Virus record (IMG/VR): IMGVR_UViG_3300037424_002473
Coordinates: 1 to 46,884 of that record
DNA: 46,884 nucleotides
Direction: 5' to 3' (one strand)
From: a virus
Taxonomy: Duplodnaviria; Caudoviricetes
Below the pieces are notes generated by a model, which had not been told where the DNA came from, ran no database searches, and saw nothing but the letters and a program-made list of their open reading frames with translations. Each line of letters opens with the position of its first letter. Position 1 is the first letter of the stretch. Positions 35,486 through 46,884 of this stretch are shown in pieces. The translations under genes and the position numbers were made by a program.

Positions 35486-35728
35486 CTATGTCATCGAAGG
35501 ACACATATCGTCTATCCAACCTTGTACATCAAAGTTCCCACATTCTAATTGTAATTGGCATGAAGGATCATCCGTCATGCCGCAAGTCATAGGATCACAA
35601 GTCACACCACCTTTTATTTTCTGGCTCATAGATTTATCTAAAATCTCAAACCTTTCATTAACACCCATCTCATTATTAAATTCAGTACTAATTGAATTTA
35701 AAGAAATCATTTCTTTGTTTTTTTTCAT
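35486..35728 (-). CDS. RiPP precursor peptide (double-glycine leader, 5-Cys core)
   Basis: FEILDKSMSQKIKGG | VTCDPMTCGMTDDPSCQLQLECGNFDVQGWIDDMCPSMT. Confidence 0.8.
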   Translation of the reverse strand: MKKNKEMISLNSISTEFNNEMGVNERFEILDKSMSQKIKGGVTCDPMTCGMTDDPSCQLQLECGNFDVQGWIDDMCPSMT

Positions 35729-35739
35729 AATTTTATTTT

Positions 35740-36408
35740 TTAATAATTAAGTGAAAAATAGTTATAATATGCTTCTTTAATCATTTGATACGTCCTGTCA
35801 TGGAAAGGTAAACATTCTTTCAAGATATTATACAGTTCAAAATCCTTGTTTTTAATAACTGAAAAAGGGTCATGAGCTTCTGTCTTAACCAGAGCTCCTC
35901 GATTATTCCTTTTTAAAAAGAAAATGGATATCACAGTATTAATTATCCTATATACTACTTTTTTCTTTTCATAATATGTTTGTGTATTCAAACTAAGTAA
36001 CTTTTCAATATTTTCTTTAAGTTCAGATATGAAAGGGCTTTTAAGAATTTCTCTTTTTTCAAAAACTTCTTCAATATTATTTTTTAGATCAAAAATTATC
36101 TTCTCAGAATCATATATAATCTTTGCATTGTAAATATATGCAATTGGCATATTGTGATAATTATATAGAAATGTGTAATTATGCGTGTGAAATATGCCCT
36201 TTTGAAAAGAAAAAATACTAATAGGTATGTCTTTATAGTTGAAACTAATAGAATAGGAATTATTGATGTGTTCGTTTATAAATAGTAAATCTATATCACT
36301 ATTTTTTTTATATGTTCCATTTGCCACCGATCCAGCCAACGCGATGGAAGAATGCGGAAATTTTTGGTGCAAATACTCTATAATTTCAGAGGCAATTTCA
36401 GTATGCAT
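35740..36408 (-). CDS. Pol-beta-superfamily nucleotidyltransferase
   Basis: LAGSVANG ... SDIDL plus helical C-terminal domain. Confidence 0.8.
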   Translation of the reverse strand: MHTEIASEIIEYLHQKFPHSSIALAGSVANGTYKKNSDIDLLFINEHINNSYSISFNYKDIPISIFSFQKGIFHTHNYTFLYNYHNMPIAYIYNAKIIYDSEKIIFDLKNNIEEVFEKREILKSPFISELKENIEKLLSLNTQTYYEKKKVVYRIINTVISIFFLKRNNRGALVKTEAHDPFSVIKNKDFELYNILKECLPFHDRTYQMIKEAYYNYFSLNY

Positions 36409-36761
36409 TAGATCAATTTTTTTATTATGAAATCTTGAGAATCTTTTGACCCAAATTCCTGTTCAAGTATCTTTATTAATTCTTTCTTTATATCTTCAAT
36501 CGTTTTTTCTGATATTTGAAACTCCAGATGATTTTTGATTTTCTCTTCATATAACTTAAACTTAATGTTATTTTTAATGCTTTCATAAAAAGCAATCAAA
36601 GCTGATTCAAACTGATACATAAAAAAATCAGGATTGAATAATTTTCTATCATCAATAATTTTCAATAAATTTACAACACTAAAATTTTCAGTAGAAATGG
36701 ATTGTTTACTTAATAAATCTTCATTTAAAAGTAACGAATCTATATTTGAAAGTTTTTCCAT
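36408..36761 (-). CDS. hypothetical protein in RiPP operon
   Basis: Stop overlaps the NTase start; begins 5 bp after the rSAM stop. Confidence 0.6.
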   Translation of the reverse strand: MEKLSNIDSLLLNEDLLSKQSISTENFSVVNLLKIIDDRKLFNPDFFMYQFESALIAFYESIKNNIKFKLYEEKIKNHLEFQISEKTIEDIKKELIKILEQEFGSKDSQDFIIKKLI

Positions 36762-36766
36762 ATCTT

Positions 36767-38173
36767 TTATGATTTATCCTTAATCAAGTTATTATAAACT
36801 TTTTTAATTGAATAATTAAAAATCTGTGGAAAATCATCACAATTTCCTGGTTCAATTTTTCCGTTTTCTCTTCTTGATTTGATAATACATCCCCCGCCAC
36901 AAAAAAGATTATACTTGCATTTTACACATTTATAATTACTAATATTTTTATAAAACCACTTTTCAATAGCATCAGGATAAATTTGAAAGTCGGGAATGTA
37001 ATGTCCTATTTTATGCTCAGTTCGTCCAACTACATCCCAACAAGAATAAATATCACCAAAAGGATCAAAAATTCTATTTCCTGTTTGTGCACCGCAAAAT
37101 GTACTTTTATAAAACAAATTTTCCTTTCCTAAAATTATTTTCTTTAGTTTTTCATAGATTCCATAATCCTGACAAAAAACATGTTTATCTATTTCCCCTT
37201 TTGCTTTTGTTTTATCATAATGTTTAAGAAAATCTAATTGATTAAGTGGTTTATTTTGATTTGAATTACACATTTCACAAACTTTAGGTCCAGTACTTTT
37301 TTCATTAGTAACATCTACTCGCAATAAAGCCCAATAAGCGGAAAAGTTTTTATAATTGTACCAACCGCGATTTTCAAAATAACTTAATAGTTCATTAATC
37401 CTTTTTAATGTGTCAGAATCTGTGTTAATTCTTATCACAACTGGTATTCCTAATTTTAATAAATGGTCAACATTATTTGTTATTTTTTTGAAGGAATCAT
37501 TATTCTTGAAATGAGGCTTTCTTTGATTTTGGATTTCTTCAACGCCATCTAATGTAATCTGAAAAGAAAATATTTTATTAGCTTCTAATAAATCAAAATA
37601 TTTATCAAGATCATATCCATTTGAAGTAACTTTAAACTTATGATCAATTTGTTTCCCTTTTTCAGTTATATAAGATATTAACTCATAATTTTCAGCTAAA
37701 AAAGGTTCACCTCCATATAAATTAATAACTTTTGTTGTTTGATTTTTCTCATGTTTTTTTGTTATTATTTCAAATGCCTTATCAATGTATTCCTTAGTTA
37801 TAGTTCCTTTTGGTAATGCATTAGTGCTGTTTAATATATCATCTTCATAACAATAAACACATCTTAAGTTACAATCGTATGAAAGAATAAAATGAAAATT
37901 ATATAATTTAAATTGATTCTGTTCTTGGGTTTTATCAATTAATTGTTTTACTAATTCTATTTCTTCAGTCTTTGATAAAGATGTTATATATCCTCTCTTA
38001 ACTAATTTGTCCAAAGTACTTTCCGAGATACTCTGTAAGTTTCCTCGGCCTTTTAAAAATTCGTAAATATCATAATTTACTAAATCGAATGCTTGTGTAT
38101 AACTATTAATAATTGCATAAACTTCTTTTTCTTTATCTACATTTACAGCAATATTATATGAAGAACTTCTCAT
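36767..38173 (-). CDS. radical SAM/SPASM peptide maturase
   Basis: CNLRCVYC, YGGEP, SPASM cysteines C..GDIYSC..CVKC..FCGGGC..C; RRE-like N-terminus. Confidence 0.9.
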   Translation of the reverse strand: MRSSSYNIAVNVDKEKEVYAIINSYTQAFDLVNYDIYEFLKGRGNLQSISESTLDKLVKRGYITSLSKTEEIELVKQLIDKTQEQNQFKLYNFHFILSYDCNLRCVYCYEDDILNSTNALPKGTITKEYIDKAFEIITKKHEKNQTTKVINLYGGEPFLAENYELISYITEKGKQIDHKFKVTSNGYDLDKYFDLLEANKIFSFQITLDGVEEIQNQRKPHFKNNDSFKKITNNVDHLLKLGIPVVIRINTDSDTLKRINELLSYFENRGWYNYKNFSAYWALLRVDVTNEKSTGPKVCEMCNSNQNKPLNQLDFLKHYDKTKAKGEIDKHVFCQDYGIYEKLKKIILGKENLFYKSTFCGAQTGNRIFDPFGDIYSCWDVVGRTEHKIGHYIPDFQIYPDAIEKWFYKNISNYKCVKCKYNLFCGGGCIIKSRRENGKIEPGNCDDFPQIFNYSIKKVYNNLIKDKS

Positions 38174-38301: not shown

Positions 38302-38435
38302 CTATAACATCGGGTCTTAAAGCATGCGGGGTGTATTTTAAGTTTGACAATTTTTGCTATATTTGTTTCAATGTCAACGGGTGACATTGAAACGCGGCGC
38401 GCTCCCGCCCGCTTCAAACCCGAAGAACGTTATAA
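38302..38435 (+). repeat. attC-like site 3 (134 bp)
   Basis: CTATAAC ... GTTATAA; arms TCGGGT..GCGGG / CCCGC..ACCCGA. Confidence 0.8.
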
Positions 38436-38747
38436 GCAAGGCGTCTAAAAAAAATCCGAATACTTCATCTCATCTTGACAAGTCAATAAATTAAATTAAC
38501 TTTTTTCCGGTTTGACACTGTTTTCAAGTTTGAAACTTTATTTCATTACTGACAATTAAAATATTATTTCTTTTCGTAATGGTTTGACAGTGTATTTTTC
38601 AGGATTGGTTCGGTAGGTATGACAGGTAAAAAATTAGTATCCCAACGCGCTTTGCAGCCTGACGGCTGCATTTGTGATTTATTAAAGCATATTTGCTTCG
38701 CAAAAAAGCTTTAATTAAAAAAGTTAGCGGCAAAAAAATAAAGCGTC

Positions 38748-39167
38748 TTAGGTTTCCAGTTCAGCTATCTGATTATTTAGATACACCAATTTTGACTGTT
38801 TTTCAATTGAGAATGTTTTGGATTCTTTGATAACAAATTCTAAGAGTAATAATGACTTTTTATAATACAAGAGACAGTCATTTAATTTTCTTTGAGCGTA
38901 TAATAATTCTGCTTGAGCATAAAAAAGTTCTGATAGGATTTCTAAATGACCATTAGTATAGTTATGTTCCTGAATAAGATTATCTGTCAATTTTGTTATT
39001 GGAATATTATTAAAAAATGTTGAATCTTGCTTCAATATATCATAATAAGCATTATCAATAGATTGAGACGCTTTTTGGAAATCACCTTTTTTGATTAGCC
39101 CTAATATTCCAGCGACTAATTCTGCAAGCATCTCAATCATTCTTAATATAAAATCTCTTTGATACAT
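38748..39167 (-). CDS. helical protein (DUF6483-like)
   Basis: MYQRDFILRMIE N-terminus; TPR-like helices. Confidence 0.6.
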   Translation of the reverse strand: MYQRDFILRMIEMLAELVAGILGLIKKGDFQKASQSIDNAYYDILKQDSTFFNNIPITKLTDNLIQEHNYTNGHLEILSELFYAQAELLYAQRKLNDCLLYYKKSLLLLEFVIKESKTFSIEKQSKLVYLNNQIAELET

Positions 39168-39817
39168 TATACCATTTCGGAGTTTAGTTCTTCAATTGAG
39201 TTATTCAAATCTGCTATGATTCCAGAAAACCTTTTATTAAAGTAATATTTTCCAATAAAAGGTAATGAAATAAGATAGCCAATAGAGAAAATTAAAACAT
39301 AACCTTGGAGACTATTAATATTAAAATTTGATAAACCTGTCTTATCATTGATTAATATATTTGCAAAAACTGTTAAAATTGCTAATGAAGCATATGTTAT
39401 TACAGATTCCCTTGTTGATATTTTTTCAAATTTGGTTTTAACCTTTTTCAACGAATCGAGAATAGAAGATGTATTATAAGATAAATAGAGCAACTTTAGT
39501 TTAGAATTAATGCTTACAGCTTTAAGCGCATAATAACTTATTACTAATACTAAGAAAACATAACCTTGTATAGGTAAACTATGATTTTTGTTATTCAAAT
39601 AAAGTGTAGCAAAAATTGCAATAACAAGCACAAGAATAGCAGTTGCGATATTTGTTAAATAATCAAATCTTAGTTTTTTAGATAGTTTTTCGATTGTTTT
39701 ACTACTTTTTAACTTAATAATTCGCTCTATATTTTCTTTAGCAATACTTTTATCAATGAGATTTTCATTTGACAATGTTTGCCATATTTTTTTTAGTTCA
39801 TTTGTTTCCATTTTCAA
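39167..39817 (-). CDS. 4-TM membrane protein, probable anti-sigma factor
   Basis: ELKKIWQ N-terminus; overlaps the sigma gene. Confidence 0.7.
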   Translation of the reverse strand: MKMETNELKKIWQTLSNENLIDKSIAKENIERIIKLKSSKTIEKLSKKLRFDYLTNIATAILVLVIAIFATLYLNNKNHSLPIQGYVFLVLVISYYALKAVSINSKLKLLYLSYNTSSILDSLKKVKTKFEKISTRESVITYASLAILTVFANILINDKTGLSNFNINSLQGYVLIFSIGYLISLPFIGKYYFNKRFSGIIADLNNSIEELNSEMV

Positions 39818-40286
39818 TTGAGTTTAAAATTAATGACTTGATTCTATTTATTTTAACACCAGTGTTACTTTCTGAAATACCCATGATTTCAGCAATTTCT
39901 TTATAACTGAATTCATCGAGATACAGAGTTATTATAGCTTTATCAATTTCAGACAATGTATTAATAGTTTGATAAAGCTTTTCTTGGTTTTCGCTTAATT
40001 CACTTTTTGAATCGGAGATTGTTATGGAATCGTTATACTCATATTTTACAAATTCAGGTTGAGTCTTTTCTTTTCTAATTATATCAATTGCAGAATTTAA
40101 ACAAACTCGAAACATCCATGTTGAAAATTTTGACTGATTATTAAAACTTGGAAAAGCTTTCCATAATTGAATAATTAGTTCTTGTTTATAGTCTTGCTTA
40201 TCAGCACGATTATTAAAATACAAACTACAAATTTTGTGAACTATACCTTGATTTTGATATAATAACTCTGTAAATTCTTTTTCCAT
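39798..40286 (-). CDS. ECF sigma-70 factor
   Basis: QELIIQLWKAF..F, FSTWMFRVCLN, SYKEIAEIMG; start MEKEF preferred. Confidence 0.9.
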   Translation of the reverse strand: MEKEFTELLYQNQGIVHKICSLYFNNRADKQDYKQELIIQLWKAFPSFNNQSKFSTWMFRVCLNSAIDIIRKEKTQPEFVKYEYNDSITISDSKSELSENQEKLYQTINTLSEIDKAIITLYLDEFSYKEIAEIMGISESNTGVKINRIKSLILNSIENGNK

Positions 40287-40602
40287 AATACATTGATTCA
40301 ATTTTGCCCTATAAGACGAAAATAAAAAAGGATTTCTTACAAGATAGTTAAGTTTTTTATTATTTCGCAAATAAATTCAGTGGTTAGCATTGATACATTT
40401 GTTGGATTTCTTGTAGGAAACTAATAATCCCAACCTAATTACAAACACATTGGCAAACCTTTTCGGGTTTACCAAAAAGTTTGCAATCCAACCCAATTTT
40501 GCCGTAACCGGCAATAAAAAATCCCAACCCAAATACTAATTTTTTAGCATTTCATGGATTGGTTTTTAACCAAACTGACAAGCACGGTAACTTACGCCCA
40601 GC

Positions 40603-40736
40603 TTATAACACGTGTTCAAGTTCAACGCGGGGTTTGGTAGTTTGCTGACTAAGTTTTATCTTAGTAAAGTTGTTCAACGGGGGACAATGAAACAAGGCGG
40701 AAACCCCGCGCTAAACTTAACACGGGACCGTTATAA
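40603..40736 (+). repeat. attC-like site 4 (134 bp)
   Basis: TTATAAC ... GTTATAA; arms CGTGTT-C-AAGTT..CGCGGGG / CCCCGCG..AACTTAACACG. Confidence 0.8.
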
Positions 40737-41182
40737 ATAAGCCGCTAAAAATTCTGTAAATCAAATAATTCTGTTTTTTGTAACTATAAAGTCTAAGAGT
40801 CTTTTTTTGCATTCTGACAGCTTTTGTAATTTAGAAAGGAATTTGCTTTCTGATAATGAAAGTATAATTTATTCGTGCTATTTGATACTGAATTTAGCGA
40901 GAATGGCTCGGTAAGTATGATAGAAAATTGTTTTAGTTTTTCCAACGCGCTTGCGCTCGTTGAGCGCATTTGGTTTTTTTTAATAATTTCAAAAACACTA
41001 AAAGCCAATTTCATTAACATATTTTCTATTAATTATTGTATTTCAATAAAAACTTATTATTTTTACGCTACACTTCGAGAACGAAAAAATTGTGATTTGA
41101 AAGGTAGTATTAAATAACAAATTAGTACTGAATATTTTATGTCAGAAATATAGGTGCTTTAATTTTCATAAATTAATATTAA

Positions 41183-43450
41183 ATGATTATGATTAAAAAA
41201 TTCACTATTCTATTTTATCTCCTAGTTTTATCTTTTGGATTGTTTTCTCAAGTTAAGGATGAAGAAATAGTTTTAAAAGACCAAAAAGGAAAACCAAGTT
41301 TAATTAAGTTTAAAGATACTAAGGTAAATTCAGATGAATTTGCTGTTAAATCTTTTCTAAAAACACAATTTGAATTATCGGTTAATGATAATTACAAATC
41401 AGAAGAAACAATTATTGAACAAGAATTTAAATCCGAAAAGTTTCAGCAATATTACCGAGGTATGAAAGTTGAGTATGGTATATTAAAAGTAGTTTCAAGG
41501 AACAATAAATTGAAAACTATAAATGGAAGACATGTTGAAATTAAGGAGATAAATACCATTCCAAAATTGACCGAAGAGGAAGCGTTAAAAATTGCTTTAG
41601 ATCATGTTGGAGCGGAGCGATATATGTGGCAAGATGAATCTAACGAACAGTTACTTAAGTCGGACCTAAATGATCAAAATGCCACTTATTATCCTATAGG
41701 TGAACTAGTAATAATTGAAAAGGATTTATTTGGCAAAAACTCAATTCCTGTTCTTGCATATAAATTTGACATCTACGCATCTTACCCTGTTAGTCGAAAC
41801 TATATTTATGTCAATGCAAATGATGGTGAAGTTGTTTTTCAAAATCCTATAATAAAAAATGTACAAGGAACAGCGAATACAAGATACTCAGGACAAAGAG
41901 ATATTGAAACACAATTATCTTCAAGTCAATATAGATTGAGAGACTACTCAAGGGGGAATGGTGTGGAAACATTCAATATGAACAATGGAACAAGTTATAG
42001 CAATGTATCTGATTTTGTTGATAACAACAATGATTGGACAGCAGCAGAGTACCATAATACAGATAAAGATGATGCAGCCTTAGATGCTCATTGGGGAGCG
42101 GAAATGACATATGATTATTTTTGGGTAAAGCATAGAAGGAATAGCTATAATGGTAGCGGGGCTGCTTTAAAAAATTATGTACACGCAAATCTGGTTGCAA
42201 TGGGGTATTCTTCAAATGATAATGCATTTTGGGATGGTCAAAGAATGACATATGGAGACGGCAGTTGGTTATGTGATGCTTTAACTAGTATTGATGTTGT
42301 AGCACATGAAATTGGACATGGTGTTTGCTCTCAAACCGCAAATTTGGCATACCAAAAGGAATCAGGAGCGATAAATGAGGGTTTAAGCGATATATGGGGA
42401 GCTATGGTAGAGTATTATGCAGCACCAGAAAAACAAACCTATCTAATTGGTGAAGATATCATGCTCACTGGCAATGCTATACGTTCTATGTCAAATCCTA
42501 ACATGTATTCCCAACCTGATACATATGGTGGTACAAATTGGGTTAATCAGGATGGTTGTACAGCAACTAGATATAATGATTATTGTGGAGTTCATACTAA
42601 TGGTGGAGTTTTAAACCATTGGTTTTTCATTTTAGCCGAAGGGCATAGTGGTACTAATGATATTGGTAATAGTTTTAACATATCTGGCGTTGGAAAAGAT
42701 CGGGCTGCAAAGATTGTATATAGGGCAGAAAGTATGTATTTCACATCGACAACTGATTTTAACCAAGCAAGAGAACTGACTATTCAAGCAGCAGATGATT
42801 TATATGGAGACAATTCTGACGTAGTTTATCATGTCGCTTATGCTTGGTATGCTGTTGGAGTTGGTTCACAACCAAGTCCAGTTTCTCATTATATACAAGG
42901 TCCAACGCAGTTAACACCAGGCTATTCAGCAATGTATTATATTAATCCATATCTTAATGCTACTAATTATGTTTGGACTATACCTTCAGGTTGTTCATAT
43001 AACTATTGTTGGGATATTACTCGGGGACAAGGAACGAGCAGTATCAGAATAAAAGCAGGTAAAATAGGACAACACGAAATAACATGTAAAATATATAACG
43101 GCAGTCAATATGTAACTTCACAATACATAACTGTAAATGTTCAGAATCCTTATGGAGGTGGAGGAAGTGGAGGCGGAAGTAGTGACCCTTGTGATGGTAC
43201 TGATCCAGATGATATTTTAAAAATAATTAACGGGGTTATTTATCCACCAGAACCATGCGATGAAAATACTATCATGTATGAATCAAACAGTTTTGTTCAT
43301 ATAGCCGTATATAATTTGATGGGACAAAAATTGAAGGAATCATATAAAGAACAACAATTTGATATTAAAGACCTTTCTTTAGGGATTTATTTAATTAGAG
43401 CAGAATTGAATAATGGTAATGTAATAACAGAAAAAATATTTAATGAATAA
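41183..43450 (+). CDS. M4 (thermolysin-family) metallopeptidase with propeptide and T9SS C-terminal domain
   Basis: Signal peptide, NAFWDG, HEIGH, NEGLSD, GVHTNG; C-terminal VYNLMGQ..GIYLI..K. Confidence 0.9.
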   Translation: MIMIKKFTILFYLLVLSFGLFSQVKDEEIVLKDQKGKPSLIKFKDTKVNSDEFAVKSFLKTQFELSVNDNYKSEETIIEQEFKSEKFQQYYRGMKVEYGILKVVSRNNKLKTINGRHVEIKEINTIPKLTEEEALKIALDHVGAERYMWQDESNEQLLKSDLNDQNATYYPIGELVIIEKDLFGKNSIPVLAYKFDIYASYPVSRNYIYVNANDGEVVFQNPIIKNVQGTANTRYSGQRDIETQLSSSQYRLRDYSRGNGVETFNMNNGTSYSNVSDFVDNNNDWTAAEYHNTDKDDAALDAHWGAEMTYDYFWVKHRRNSYNGSGAALKNYVHANLVAMGYSSNDNAFWDGQRMTYGDGSWLCDALTSIDVVAHEIGHGVCSQTANLAYQKESGAINEGLSDIWGAMVEYYAAPEKQTYLIGEDIMLTGNAIRSMSNPNMYSQPDTYGGTNWVNQDGCTATRYNDYCGVHTNGGVLNHWFFILAEGHSGTNDIGNSFNISGVGKDRAAKIVYRAESMYFTSTTDFNQARELTIQAADDLYGDNSDVVYHVAYAWYAVGVGSQPSPVSHYIQGPTQLTPGYSAMYYINPYLNATNYVWTIPSGCSYNYCWDITRGQGTSSIRIKAGKIGQHEITCKIYNGSQYVTSQYITVNVQNPYGGGGSGGGSSDPCDGTDPDDILKIINGVIYPPEPCDENTIMYESNSFVHIAVYNLMGQKLKESYKEQQFDIKDLSLGIYLIRAELNNGNVITEKIFNE

Positions 43451-43796
43451 AACTATGAAAAAAGTAATCTTTTTTTTAGCAATAAGCCTAATTTTAATTA
43501 GTTGTGATGACGATGAGTCTATTGCATCATATCCAGAATGTTTAGAATTTAGGATACAACAAGTTTTGGATAGTCCGCCTCAAATTCCAAGAGCTACTAT
43601 TGAGAAATATACGTATAAAGGTGAAACTGTATATTTATTTAATTCATTTATTCCAGATGCACCACAAGTTGTTTATGATGATAGTTGTAATATAATTTGC
43701 GAGTTTGGTGGTCTAACAGGGAATTTAAATGATAGTTGTCCAGATTATTGGGAAACAGCTATTTATTTAGAAACTGTATGGAAAGATAATAGATAA
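43443..43796 (+). CDS. lipoprotein (DUF6970-like)
   Basis: LISC lipobox; YTYKGETVY..CNIICEFGG. Confidence 0.7.
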   Translation: MNKTMKKVIFFLAISLILISCDDDESIASYPECLEFRIQQVLDSPPQIPRATIEKYTYKGETVYLFNSFIPDAPQVVYDDSCNIICEFGGLTGNLNDSCPDYWETAIYLETVWKDNR

Positions 43797-43944
43797 AACA
43801 ATTATATGAATATTTGATATTGTTATTTTACAGAATTTTGATAACTTATATCAAAATATAAAAAAATGAGTTGCCAAATAAATAGTTTACTGTTTAATAT
43901 TTAATATTTAAGTGCAGTTTAAATAGTTACTTTACAAATAATAG

Positions 43945-43986
43945 AAAGCTCTTTTGCGTTTTGTTTATAATGCAAAGAGCTTTTTT
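43945..43986 (+). terminator. intrinsic terminator
   Basis: AAAGCTCTTTTGC ... GCAAAGAGCTTT followed by T-run. Confidence 0.7.
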
Positions 43987-44088
43987 ATTGCCTTACAGGC
44001 AATTTGCAATCCCTTTTAAAAACTAAAACAATTTTGTGCTTCGTTGAAAATTATTACCAAACTGACAAGGTTTATGTTGCCGGCCAAT

Positions 44089-44222
44089 TTATAACACGGC
44101 ATCTTAAAACATGCGGGGTTTTGGTGGTTTTTTGACATTTTTAATTATCTTTAAACTTTACAACGGCGGATTGGAACGCTGGGCGGAAAACCCGCACGTT
44201 TCAAATGCCGAGACCGTTAGGC
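44089..44222 (+). repeat. attC-like site 5 (134 bp)
   Basis: TTATAAC ... GTTAGGC; arms CGGCAT..AAACATGCGGG / CCCGCACGTTT..ATGCCG. Confidence 0.8.
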
Positions 44223-46006: not shown

Positions 46007-46771
46007 ATGAAACACATGAAACAATATTTACTTTTATTTAGTTTAATACTGACGGTTTTTATTTCTGAGAAATCATTTGGTCAAGGTCAATATTCAATGA
46101 CTCATATTGCAATTGCACCTCAAAATAAGAAAATAATTCTTTCAGAAATCTGGAGAAATTCGCGTGAAGATTATCGTGGTTATGTTAAAAATTCAAAGTT
46201 ATATGAATTTCCTCTTGACTGTAACAATAGCAAAGATCTTATACTATGTGATAACTATGAATGGTCAAAAGATGGAAGGTTTTTCACTGGATTTAAATCA
46301 AAATCATGGTACGATTCAGAAATTTATCTTTATGAATCTACTGGAAAACTAATTGATAAAATCAAAAATGGTTATACATATTCATTTGTGCTTCCAGAAT
46401 TTCATGTTTTTTATCGACAGCATGATACTCTAAGTAAAAAACGAATTTGTCAATTAGTACAATATGACTATAAGAATAAGTCAGAAACTATAATATATTC
46501 GTTTGGAGAAGACTATACGTTTTATAGTCCAGAAGACCATGATGGATTTGGTTTTCCAAAACCACTTGATTATTACTGGGGTGGCTTAAGGGGTGTAATT
46601 TATAAAATTACTAAAACTGACCATGAAAACTTTACTGGAAATATTATGGAATATGAAACTTTAACATTTGTTATTTCAACAAAAGACAAAAAGCTTAAAT
46701 ATTTGATTCAAGGTTCTCATACTGACAAGAAACCATTACCAGAAGATAAAATATTAAAGTCGAGTAGGTAA
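46007..46771 (+). CDS. secreted hypothetical protein (cassette G), 3' end interrupted by intron
   Basis: Signal peptide; last codons and stop lie inside intron sequence. Confidence 0.65.
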   Translation: MKHMKQYLLLFSLILTVFISEKSFGQGQYSMTHIAIAPQNKKIILSEIWRNSREDYRGYVKNSKLYEFPLDCNNSKDLILCDNYEWSKDGRFFTGFKSKSWYDSEIYLYESTGKLIDKIKNGYTYSFVLPEFHVFYRQHDTLSKKRICQLVQYDYKNKSETIIYSFGEDYTFYSPEDHDGFGFPKPLDYYWGGLRGVIYKITKTDHENFTGNIMEYETLTFVISTKDKKLKYLIQGSHTDKKPLPEDKILKSSR

Positions 46772-46884
46772 AGGGGAGTTTCACCCCTAAACCTCTCACG
46801 GAACCGTGCTTGACAGTCTCCCATCACACGGCTCTTCGAACTCTCGCAACCATCTCAGGTTGACAGGTTGAAAACAAGCTCATC
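46759..46884 (-). mobile_element. group II intron 3' end (domains V-VI), continues beyond the window
   Basis: Minus strand GAGCCGTGTGATGGGAGACTGTCAAGCACGGTTC (DV), then DVI ending CCTACTCGAC. Confidence 0.85.

Follow-up and report, generated by a model that had tools for sequence, protein, structure and literature searches.

Layout of the window and of cassettes C and D

Here we have followed up two large gene cassettes in the viral record IMGVR_UViG_3300037424_002473 (Caudoviricetes), analysed over its full 46,884 nucleotides (the window). A phage-like block (about 1600-35200), which encodes a TniB-like ATPase and a DNA methylase, makes up most of the window, and seven attC-like sites lie in the window; we infer that the block is a transposable prophage inside one cassette of an attC-like array, prophage ends not having been found in the window. 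Cassettes C (38429-40730) and D (40730-44216) lie to the right of this block, and each holds its genes between a non-coding leader (left arm) of ~225 bp and a non-coding trailer (right arm) of ~110 bp, together about 335 bp.

Cassette C begins at 38429, the crossover G of a GTTA core, where the attC-like site of the preceding cassette ends (38305..38429, plus strand; attC profile match, bottom-strand hairpin z of -4.13). Its leader (38429..38653, plus) carries TGACA at 38476, 38513, 38550, 38585 and 38620 and one half of a second inverted repeat (IR2; 38628..38640, plus), a 13-nt perfect complement of 40533-40545 in the trailer. Two small hairpin modules, read from the sequence, occupy the inner edge of the leader (38653..38717, plus) and are followed by the GTTA-core start (38723..38737, plus) of a nested former plain cassette, that is, one without arms; its first 9 nt complement the end of a plain cassette with the same operon in L035. 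The cargo (38748..40370, minus) comprises an extracytoplasmic function (ECF) sigma factor, a 216-aa partner (likely an anti-sigma factor) and a 139-aa protein. Behind it lie the decayed, R''-like 3' end of the nested cassette (40376..40389, plus), up to which the L035 homology reaches and whose own attC is gone, and a short putative remnant (40404..40424, plus) that by eye resembles the last codons of a PQLLE-family gene; in other elements that gene precedes the trailer type of cassette C. The cassette closes with two hairpin modules at the inner edge of the trailer (40440..40515, plus), the trailer itself (40498..40609, plus; profile match, TAAC end), which contains the IR2 half at 40533-40545, and its attC-like site (40606..40730, plus; hairpin z of -5.60, profile match).

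Cassette D also lies between two arms. Its leader (40730..40952, plus; TGAYA at 40815, 40851, 40883 and 40918) contains an IR2 half (40924..40941, plus) that is an 18-nt perfect complement of 44018-44035; its cargo (41183..43796, plus) encodes an M4 thermolysin-like peptidase with a type IX secretion system (T9SS) tail and a DUF6970 protein; and its trailer (43988..44095, plus), with a hairpin, the IR2 half at 44018-44035 and a TAAC end, leads into an attC-like site (44092..44216, plus; bottom-strand hairpin z of -1.9, profile match).

The initial annotation of this DNA had proposed that C and D share homologous arms around unrelated genes. For the leaders this holds well: TGACA (+84 in C, +85 in D), CTGAYAAT (+120/+120), TTTGAYA.TG (+154/+151), a 20-mer identical at 17/20 positions (+177/+174) and CCAACGCGCTT (+213/+212; 38642 and 40942) recur at matching offsets, 152 of 236 alignment columns are identical, and the alignment score of 126 was reached by 0/1000 shuffled controls (mean 36.5, maximum 62). 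A 14-mer common to both trailers (40569 and 44056) lies 23 and 22 nt before TAAC, and the TTGCC..GGCAAT..AATCCC hairpin that the initial annotation listed (40499 and 43988) is likewise present in both. The trailer alignment taken alone exceeded its shuffles (59 vs a maximum of 54), but an unrelated AT-rich intergenic stretch of the window reached 69; since this two-copy alignment is unconvincing, trailer homology rests on homologues elsewhere.

The arms recur as a pair across a Bacteroidales family

A 19-base pattern run against a genome collection matched 20 loci; nine were chance matches that were dropped, and 11 are true leaders. Of these 11, nine have Bacteroidales/Bacteroidetes titles, one a Flavobacteriaceae title, and one is a partial leader in a Thiohalospira-titled bin. 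The arms are thus not limited to C and D: the leader is present in 26 of the 56 genomes of the Bacteroidales family to which genome G002 belongs. It was found in 7/401 genomes sampled across the order (two candidates per genome scored) and in 2/401 genomes of the class (pattern search). As these wider searches were limited in that way, rarity outside the family means that the leader was not found in the genomes searched. In a viral collection, five patterns gave 4, 0, 2, 10 and 0 loci, all 16 of which scored at background, with no true arm. A metagenome scan returned 11 hits, all true leaders, and six contigs held the complete leader-cargo-trailer order.

Profiles of leader, trailer and attC were then annotated on the fetched surroundings of part of the leader hits. 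Whether the arms always pair, as the idea of a reusable chassis invites one to ask, can be answered for most copies: of the distinct leaders, 112 in all, 76 lead on to a trailer, 31 reach the edge of the fetched DNA first and five meet something else (three an attC and two another leader), and 77/87 trailers are preceded by a leader. A matched arm pair around unrelated cargo occurs in many genomes, and near-identical arms flank unrelated genes, which supports a reusable chassis.

Armed cassettes lie inside arrays, stand first behind an integrase-like gene (L095 and L074) and occur at off-array sites with their attC kept (L024, L029, L117); they thus occupy the positions by which cassette mobility is judged comparatively, including first position at attI-like sites. 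No circle junctions were present in the contigs examined. One contig (run X5) joins leader C to trailer C across intervening DNA and could represent an empty or a differently loaded chassis.

A conserved attI-like site ending TATAAACAA before GTT precedes armed cassettes in first position (L095 near 4645, L074 near 1500, L106 near 3386, L083, L117 near 6865); at the sites in L106 and L117, no recombinase gene was among the upstream open reading frames (ORFs) read. Elsewhere (L044, and L132 near 7894), leaders are joined in reverse to the R'' side of attC, as recombination of the other strand would give. The G052 trailers additionally harbor two group II introns (G052:C1 near 1,490,535 and 1,521,830), about 15-20 nt before attC, and IS3-like elements lie a few dozen bases into two G052 cassettes (G052:C1 1,399,860; about 1,465,970), both at short sequences that resemble each other. 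Alongside the main attC type, arrays contain two or more others that the attC profile did not detect (L035, L025, L104, L018).

Leader and trailer complement each other

A feature missed by the initial annotation is that leader and trailer are mutually complementary. One half of IR2 (13-18 nt) is placed about 195 bp from the leader start and the other 65-80 bp from the trailer end. Across 60 complete elements its pairing score is 15.05 for cognate arms vs 10.2 for non-cognate arms, and 0/10,000 permutations reach the cognate value. The match holds in both subgroups (median uninterrupted pairing, 14 nt), while the repeat itself exists in many sequence variants; furthermore, the arm bodies outside the repeats co-vary (Mantel r of 0.60, permutation maximum 0.25). 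In modelled circle junctions, IR2 is paired in the lowest-energy DNA fold for 45/55 top strands and 40/55 bottom strands. Because IR2 varies freely in sequence but keeps its complementarity, it probably acts by pairing on single-stranded DNA.

A second complementarity concerns the extreme ends: in an armed cassette the opening 15 bases can pair with the closing 15 except at positions 10-11, where a two-base mismatch is fixed. Plain cassettes of the same system (G052 array L109-L115; window cassettes) likewise have 15-bp complementary ends of free sequence with the same mismatch, which exceed the 7-bp core of classical cassettes in length, so this is a rule of the whole system, and we rejected the terminal repeat as an arm-specific feature. 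The small inner hairpins were also considered as active mini-attC sites, a candidate we dropped since each pairs only with itself.

Armed cassettes carry large, variable cargo

Complete elements (76) range from 610 to 17,786 bp in length and together contain 180 ORFs, 70 on the reverse strand. Their cargo includes restriction-modification systems, DarT and Abi genes, peptidases, regulators and metabolic operons; a Pfam scan of 167 of these ORFs detected neither a recombinase nor a transposase family. When intervals between two attC sites are compared (the window excluded and 10 half-armed intervals set aside), 45 armed cassettes have a median length of 2319 bp vs 809 bp for 130 plain ones, reverse-strand genes in 14/45 vs 0/130, and several genes in 25/45 vs 26/130. 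The one short gene co-oriented with attC that typifies an integron cassette is therefore not what armed units carry.

The largest shared cargo family is the PQLLE family, a 220-aa gene that adjoins the trailer in six elements and points away from an inner site, as intI points away from attI. Its product is a predicted helical bundle (pLDDT 93). A catalytic or required role for this protein was set aside, because searches gave no informative match and the gene is found also without a trailer.

Two further observations concern cassettes of the window itself. On the minus strand at 35486-38173 lie a radical SAM/SPASM gene, a 117-aa gene, a nucleotidyltransferase and a cysteine-rich 80-aa peptide, likely a peptide-modification cluster in an armless cassette. 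The 3' end of a group II intron (46759-46836, minus) directly follows the window's last cassette gene.

The array recombinase resembles an integron integrase without belonging to IntI

No array integrase lies in the window. The single-contig genome G052 offers the system in context: some 65 scored intervals, of which 13 are armed, form an array behind a tyrosine recombinase that is co-oriented with the array, as it also is in L095 and L074. In canonical integrons, intI is divergent from the array. The G052 integrase scores 208.9 bits against TIGR02249, below the cut-off of 265, and the IntI-specific insertion is absent (21 residues where IntI4 has 64). About 100 extra N-terminal residues of the array recombinase (L108:18533-19672) have no Pfam match; they may resemble a HARP-like fork-binding domain. 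The armed units themselves show the make-up by which integron-type cassettes are recognised, with a GTTRRRY-like start and an RYYYAAC-like end followed by a foldable attC. Judged on these features, the G052 system is one that appears to work like an integron while its recombinase falls outside the IntI family.

Cargo exchange and inner sites

Several comparisons speak to exchange of cargo between arms. Identical leaders stand on unrelated cargo within G052, trailers 99% identical stand on unrelated cargo in two genomes, and a 1.2-kb right arm is 93% identical on unrelated cargo; by the first two of these, exchange is recent in places.

Cassette C shows how cargo may have entered. Its operon exists as a plain cassette in L035 and G041:C13 with DNA 81-82% identical, and the homology ends at the decayed plain-cassette end at about 40376-40389; the nine-base cassette start at 38723 occurs once in the window, with about 8e-5 expected in 150 nt. 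Taken together, these show that a plain cassette came to lie between the arms of C and lost its attC. The proposal that the arms capture ordinary chromosomal segments is not supported, cargo C being itself a former plain cassette, and no chromosomal donor was identified for any cargo.

In a blind test for inner cassette ends, 4/76 elements, none of them cassette C, showed the full signature (permutation mean 0.2, maximum 3). Two of these, both in G052, share one inner site but carry different cassettes there, each inverted and with its attC retained; in the other two, the inner cassette is in forward orientation behind an attI-like site and its attC is truncated or decayed. Eight sequences upstream of the PQLLE gene match the site pattern; in seven of them the shared sequence ends at TAAC, and a ninth copy lacks the site. 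Most cargo junctions have no inner site. Since these signatures occur in few elements and most junctions are ragged, inner-site loading is documented for a minority of elements and extrapolated to the rest.

A model for loading and movement

We favour, with somewhat more conviction than doubt, a reading in which C and D are large cassettes built on a shared scaffold of matched complementary arms with exchangeable cargo. The array tyrosine recombinase is the likely mover of these units and, at internal sites, probably also their loader. The whole armed unit would recombine as an ordinary cassette, by means of its own attC and the GTTA/TAAC core at its ends, and new DNA would enter at attI-like sites just inside the arms. 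An inner attC in forward orientation would split the unit and then decay, inverted inner attC sites would persist, and later deletions at the hairpin modules would blur most junctions. Finally, IR2 would pair on single-stranded DNA and hold the two ends together, offsetting the loss of excision that comes with long cassettes. It is possible, as a more tentative extension that we would not press, that the scaffold serves to make cassettes: integrase sites inside it could take both plain cassettes and non-cassette DNA (restriction-modification systems, metabolic operons), turning any block of several kb into a mobile cassette in few site-specific steps, with the PQLLE protein as an accessory factor of this mini-platform.

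A number of results weigh against loading at inner sites and against so particular a role for the arms. Three inner-site profiles match only 14/76 complete elements, and 11 of those 14 are the profile seeds; an intact inner attC hairpin is present in 1/76 when the threshold is one that detects 85% of main-type attC sites, and with a more relaxed threshold inner attC hits are no denser than the chromosomal background. The commonest subtype has ragged junctions in the hairpin modules with no GTT/AAC core. The empty-vector cassette of the initial annotation found no counterpart among the 76 complete elements, the two smallest of which (610 and 730 bp) both hold cargo remnants. Identical leaders in G052 are neighbours, for which gene conversion could account, and one genome supplies several of the examples. 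Mismatches in IR2 show no strand preference (37 G-T vs 43 A-C) and so point to neither strand as the one that folds. In addition, 12/130 plain cassettes, which lack arms, are longer than 1.5 kb, and the window cassette that precedes C is a counter-example, with a four-gene reverse-strand cluster and no detectable arms. All of the evidence, moreover, is comparative and computational.

Alternative roles for the arms

The repeats in the arms invite a different reading, in which the arms bind protein as double-stranded DNA in the manner of a lambda-type attP, the trailer-attC-leader of the excised circle forming one site on which phased TGAYA copies organise a complex suited to large circles. TGAYA is a direct repeat confined largely to one strand (201 copies on the top vs 14 on the bottom strand of 55 leaders) that runs through leader, trailer and attC loop with a spacing of mostly 32-37 bp, at about -156, -86, -50, +50, +86, +121, +155 and +190 from the crossover, and the extra N-terminal residues of the integrase would suit an arm-binding function. 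We think it likely that the repeats bind a protein of the system. An attP-like arrangement does not explain an IR2 that varies freely yet remains complementary, however, and two TGAYA sites occur also in the loop of ordinary attCs; as the explanation of the arms we consider it unlikely.

Rather improbable, in our view, is that the arms serve as homology arms, with host recombination and deletions swapping the cargo and the inner sites being incidental secondary-site insertions. The multi-copy state (13 complete armed cassettes in one array), the identical neighbouring leaders and the mostly ragged junctions would all follow from it, and integrases are described as using many genomic secondary sites in the accessible part of 10.1101/2022.09.11.507474. 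Swapping leaves unexplained, however, how new cargo first enters, why junctions in several genomes fall exactly at TAAC and how one inner position came to hold two different cassettes; leader and trailer also remain matched within subgroups. Both this process and an attP-like complex could act alongside recombinase-mediated loading at inner sites.

In their long unequal ends, recurring short motifs and variable cargo, the armed units look like non-autonomous transposons (Tn7/Tn5053-like or IS1111-like), and the TGAYA motif may resemble TnsB sites; the units could be such transposons, later absorbed into arrays. We hold this to be very improbable: TGAYA points in the same direction in both arms and not inward, the terminal repeat is the general end rule of cassettes, the off-array copies still end in attC, and the scanned cargo ORFs contain no transposase or recombinase family. 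Furthermore, the IS1111 family, as far as the accessible text of PMC11187229 describes it, has sub-terminal repeats 7 and 3 bp from its ends and a DEDD transposase, neither of which is matched here, IR2 lying about 195 and 65-80 bp in.

That the arms encode a conserved structured RNA, as the initial annotation suggested, we can scarcely credit. The primary sequence is strongly conserved and both leaders end in terminator-like hairpins, but folding 55 leaders together gives no consensus structure on either strand and no conserved helix inside the leader, single-sequence folds are not better than shuffles (z of 0.48, 0.21, -1.61 and -1.47), Rfam has no match over the arms, and covariation lies between arms up to 17 kb apart. 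Sigma-70 promoter hits are likewise no more frequent than in shuffles (27 vs 34.6), and the Bacteroidota promoter motif occurs in only about 10/55 leaders.

Relation to known systems and outlook

Armed cassettes, on the reading of a recombinase-moved scaffold loaded at inner sites, belong to a system that resembles sedentary chromosomal integrons in its arrays of GTT...AAC units with folded attC-like sites behind a tyrosine recombinase, the plain units being short and co-oriented. It differs from them in a recombinase that is co-oriented, below the IntI cut-off and without the IntI-specific insertion. Complete integrons were nearly absent from Bacteroidetes genomes by IntegronFinder, according to the available portion of PMC9024848. 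Unlike integron cassettes, the armed units possess inner sites, hold several genes in either orientation and share long non-coding ends that complement each other.

Individual features have partial precedents in what is accessible of the literature, in which attG insertion, gene-less cassettes and fused cassettes are described (10.1101/2022.09.11.507474, 10.1101/2023.11.21.568050, PMC8876359). The gene-less promoter cassettes of Vibrio and Treponema (10.1101/2023.11.21.568050, PMC8876359) are likewise non-coding cassette DNA with a role of its own; as described in the portions consulted, they are whole and empty, unlike the non-coding DNA here, which is split into two arms around cargo and has no empty form among those found. 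Attachment at attG and fused cassettes, again within the accessible text, share with the armed units the use of non-classical GTT sites and the loss of inner attC, whereas the inner sites here are conserved parts of a mobile scaffold that recur across genomes. As with IS1111-attC elements and group IIC-attC introns, there is an association with attC, and group II introns do sit inside the two G052 trailers; unlike them, the arms encode no transposase or reverse transcriptase and differ in repeat geometry. Our literature search, which covered main texts and few subscription journals, returned no account of the scaffold, of paired arms or of cassette-borne inner sites. The large-cassette class is real, recurrent and apparently undescribed, within a non-canonical integron-like system.

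The accessible text of PMC5371416 presents de novo cassette formation as largely unknown, and reports that in canonical integrons cassettes of at least 1.5 kb excise less when one site folds poorly. Loading of the arms at inner sites would offer one way of assembling large mobile gene cassettes. Its reach is limited by the narrow family range, and the route accounts for large cassettes and not for the first origin of attC. With 76 complete examples that have defined arms, conserved inner sites and caught intermediates, together with a complete genome that holds both array and recombinase, this one route becomes testable with short synthetic substrates. These Bacteroidales examples also show how operons and entire defence systems, up to 17 kb and in either orientation, can travel within an integron-like system.

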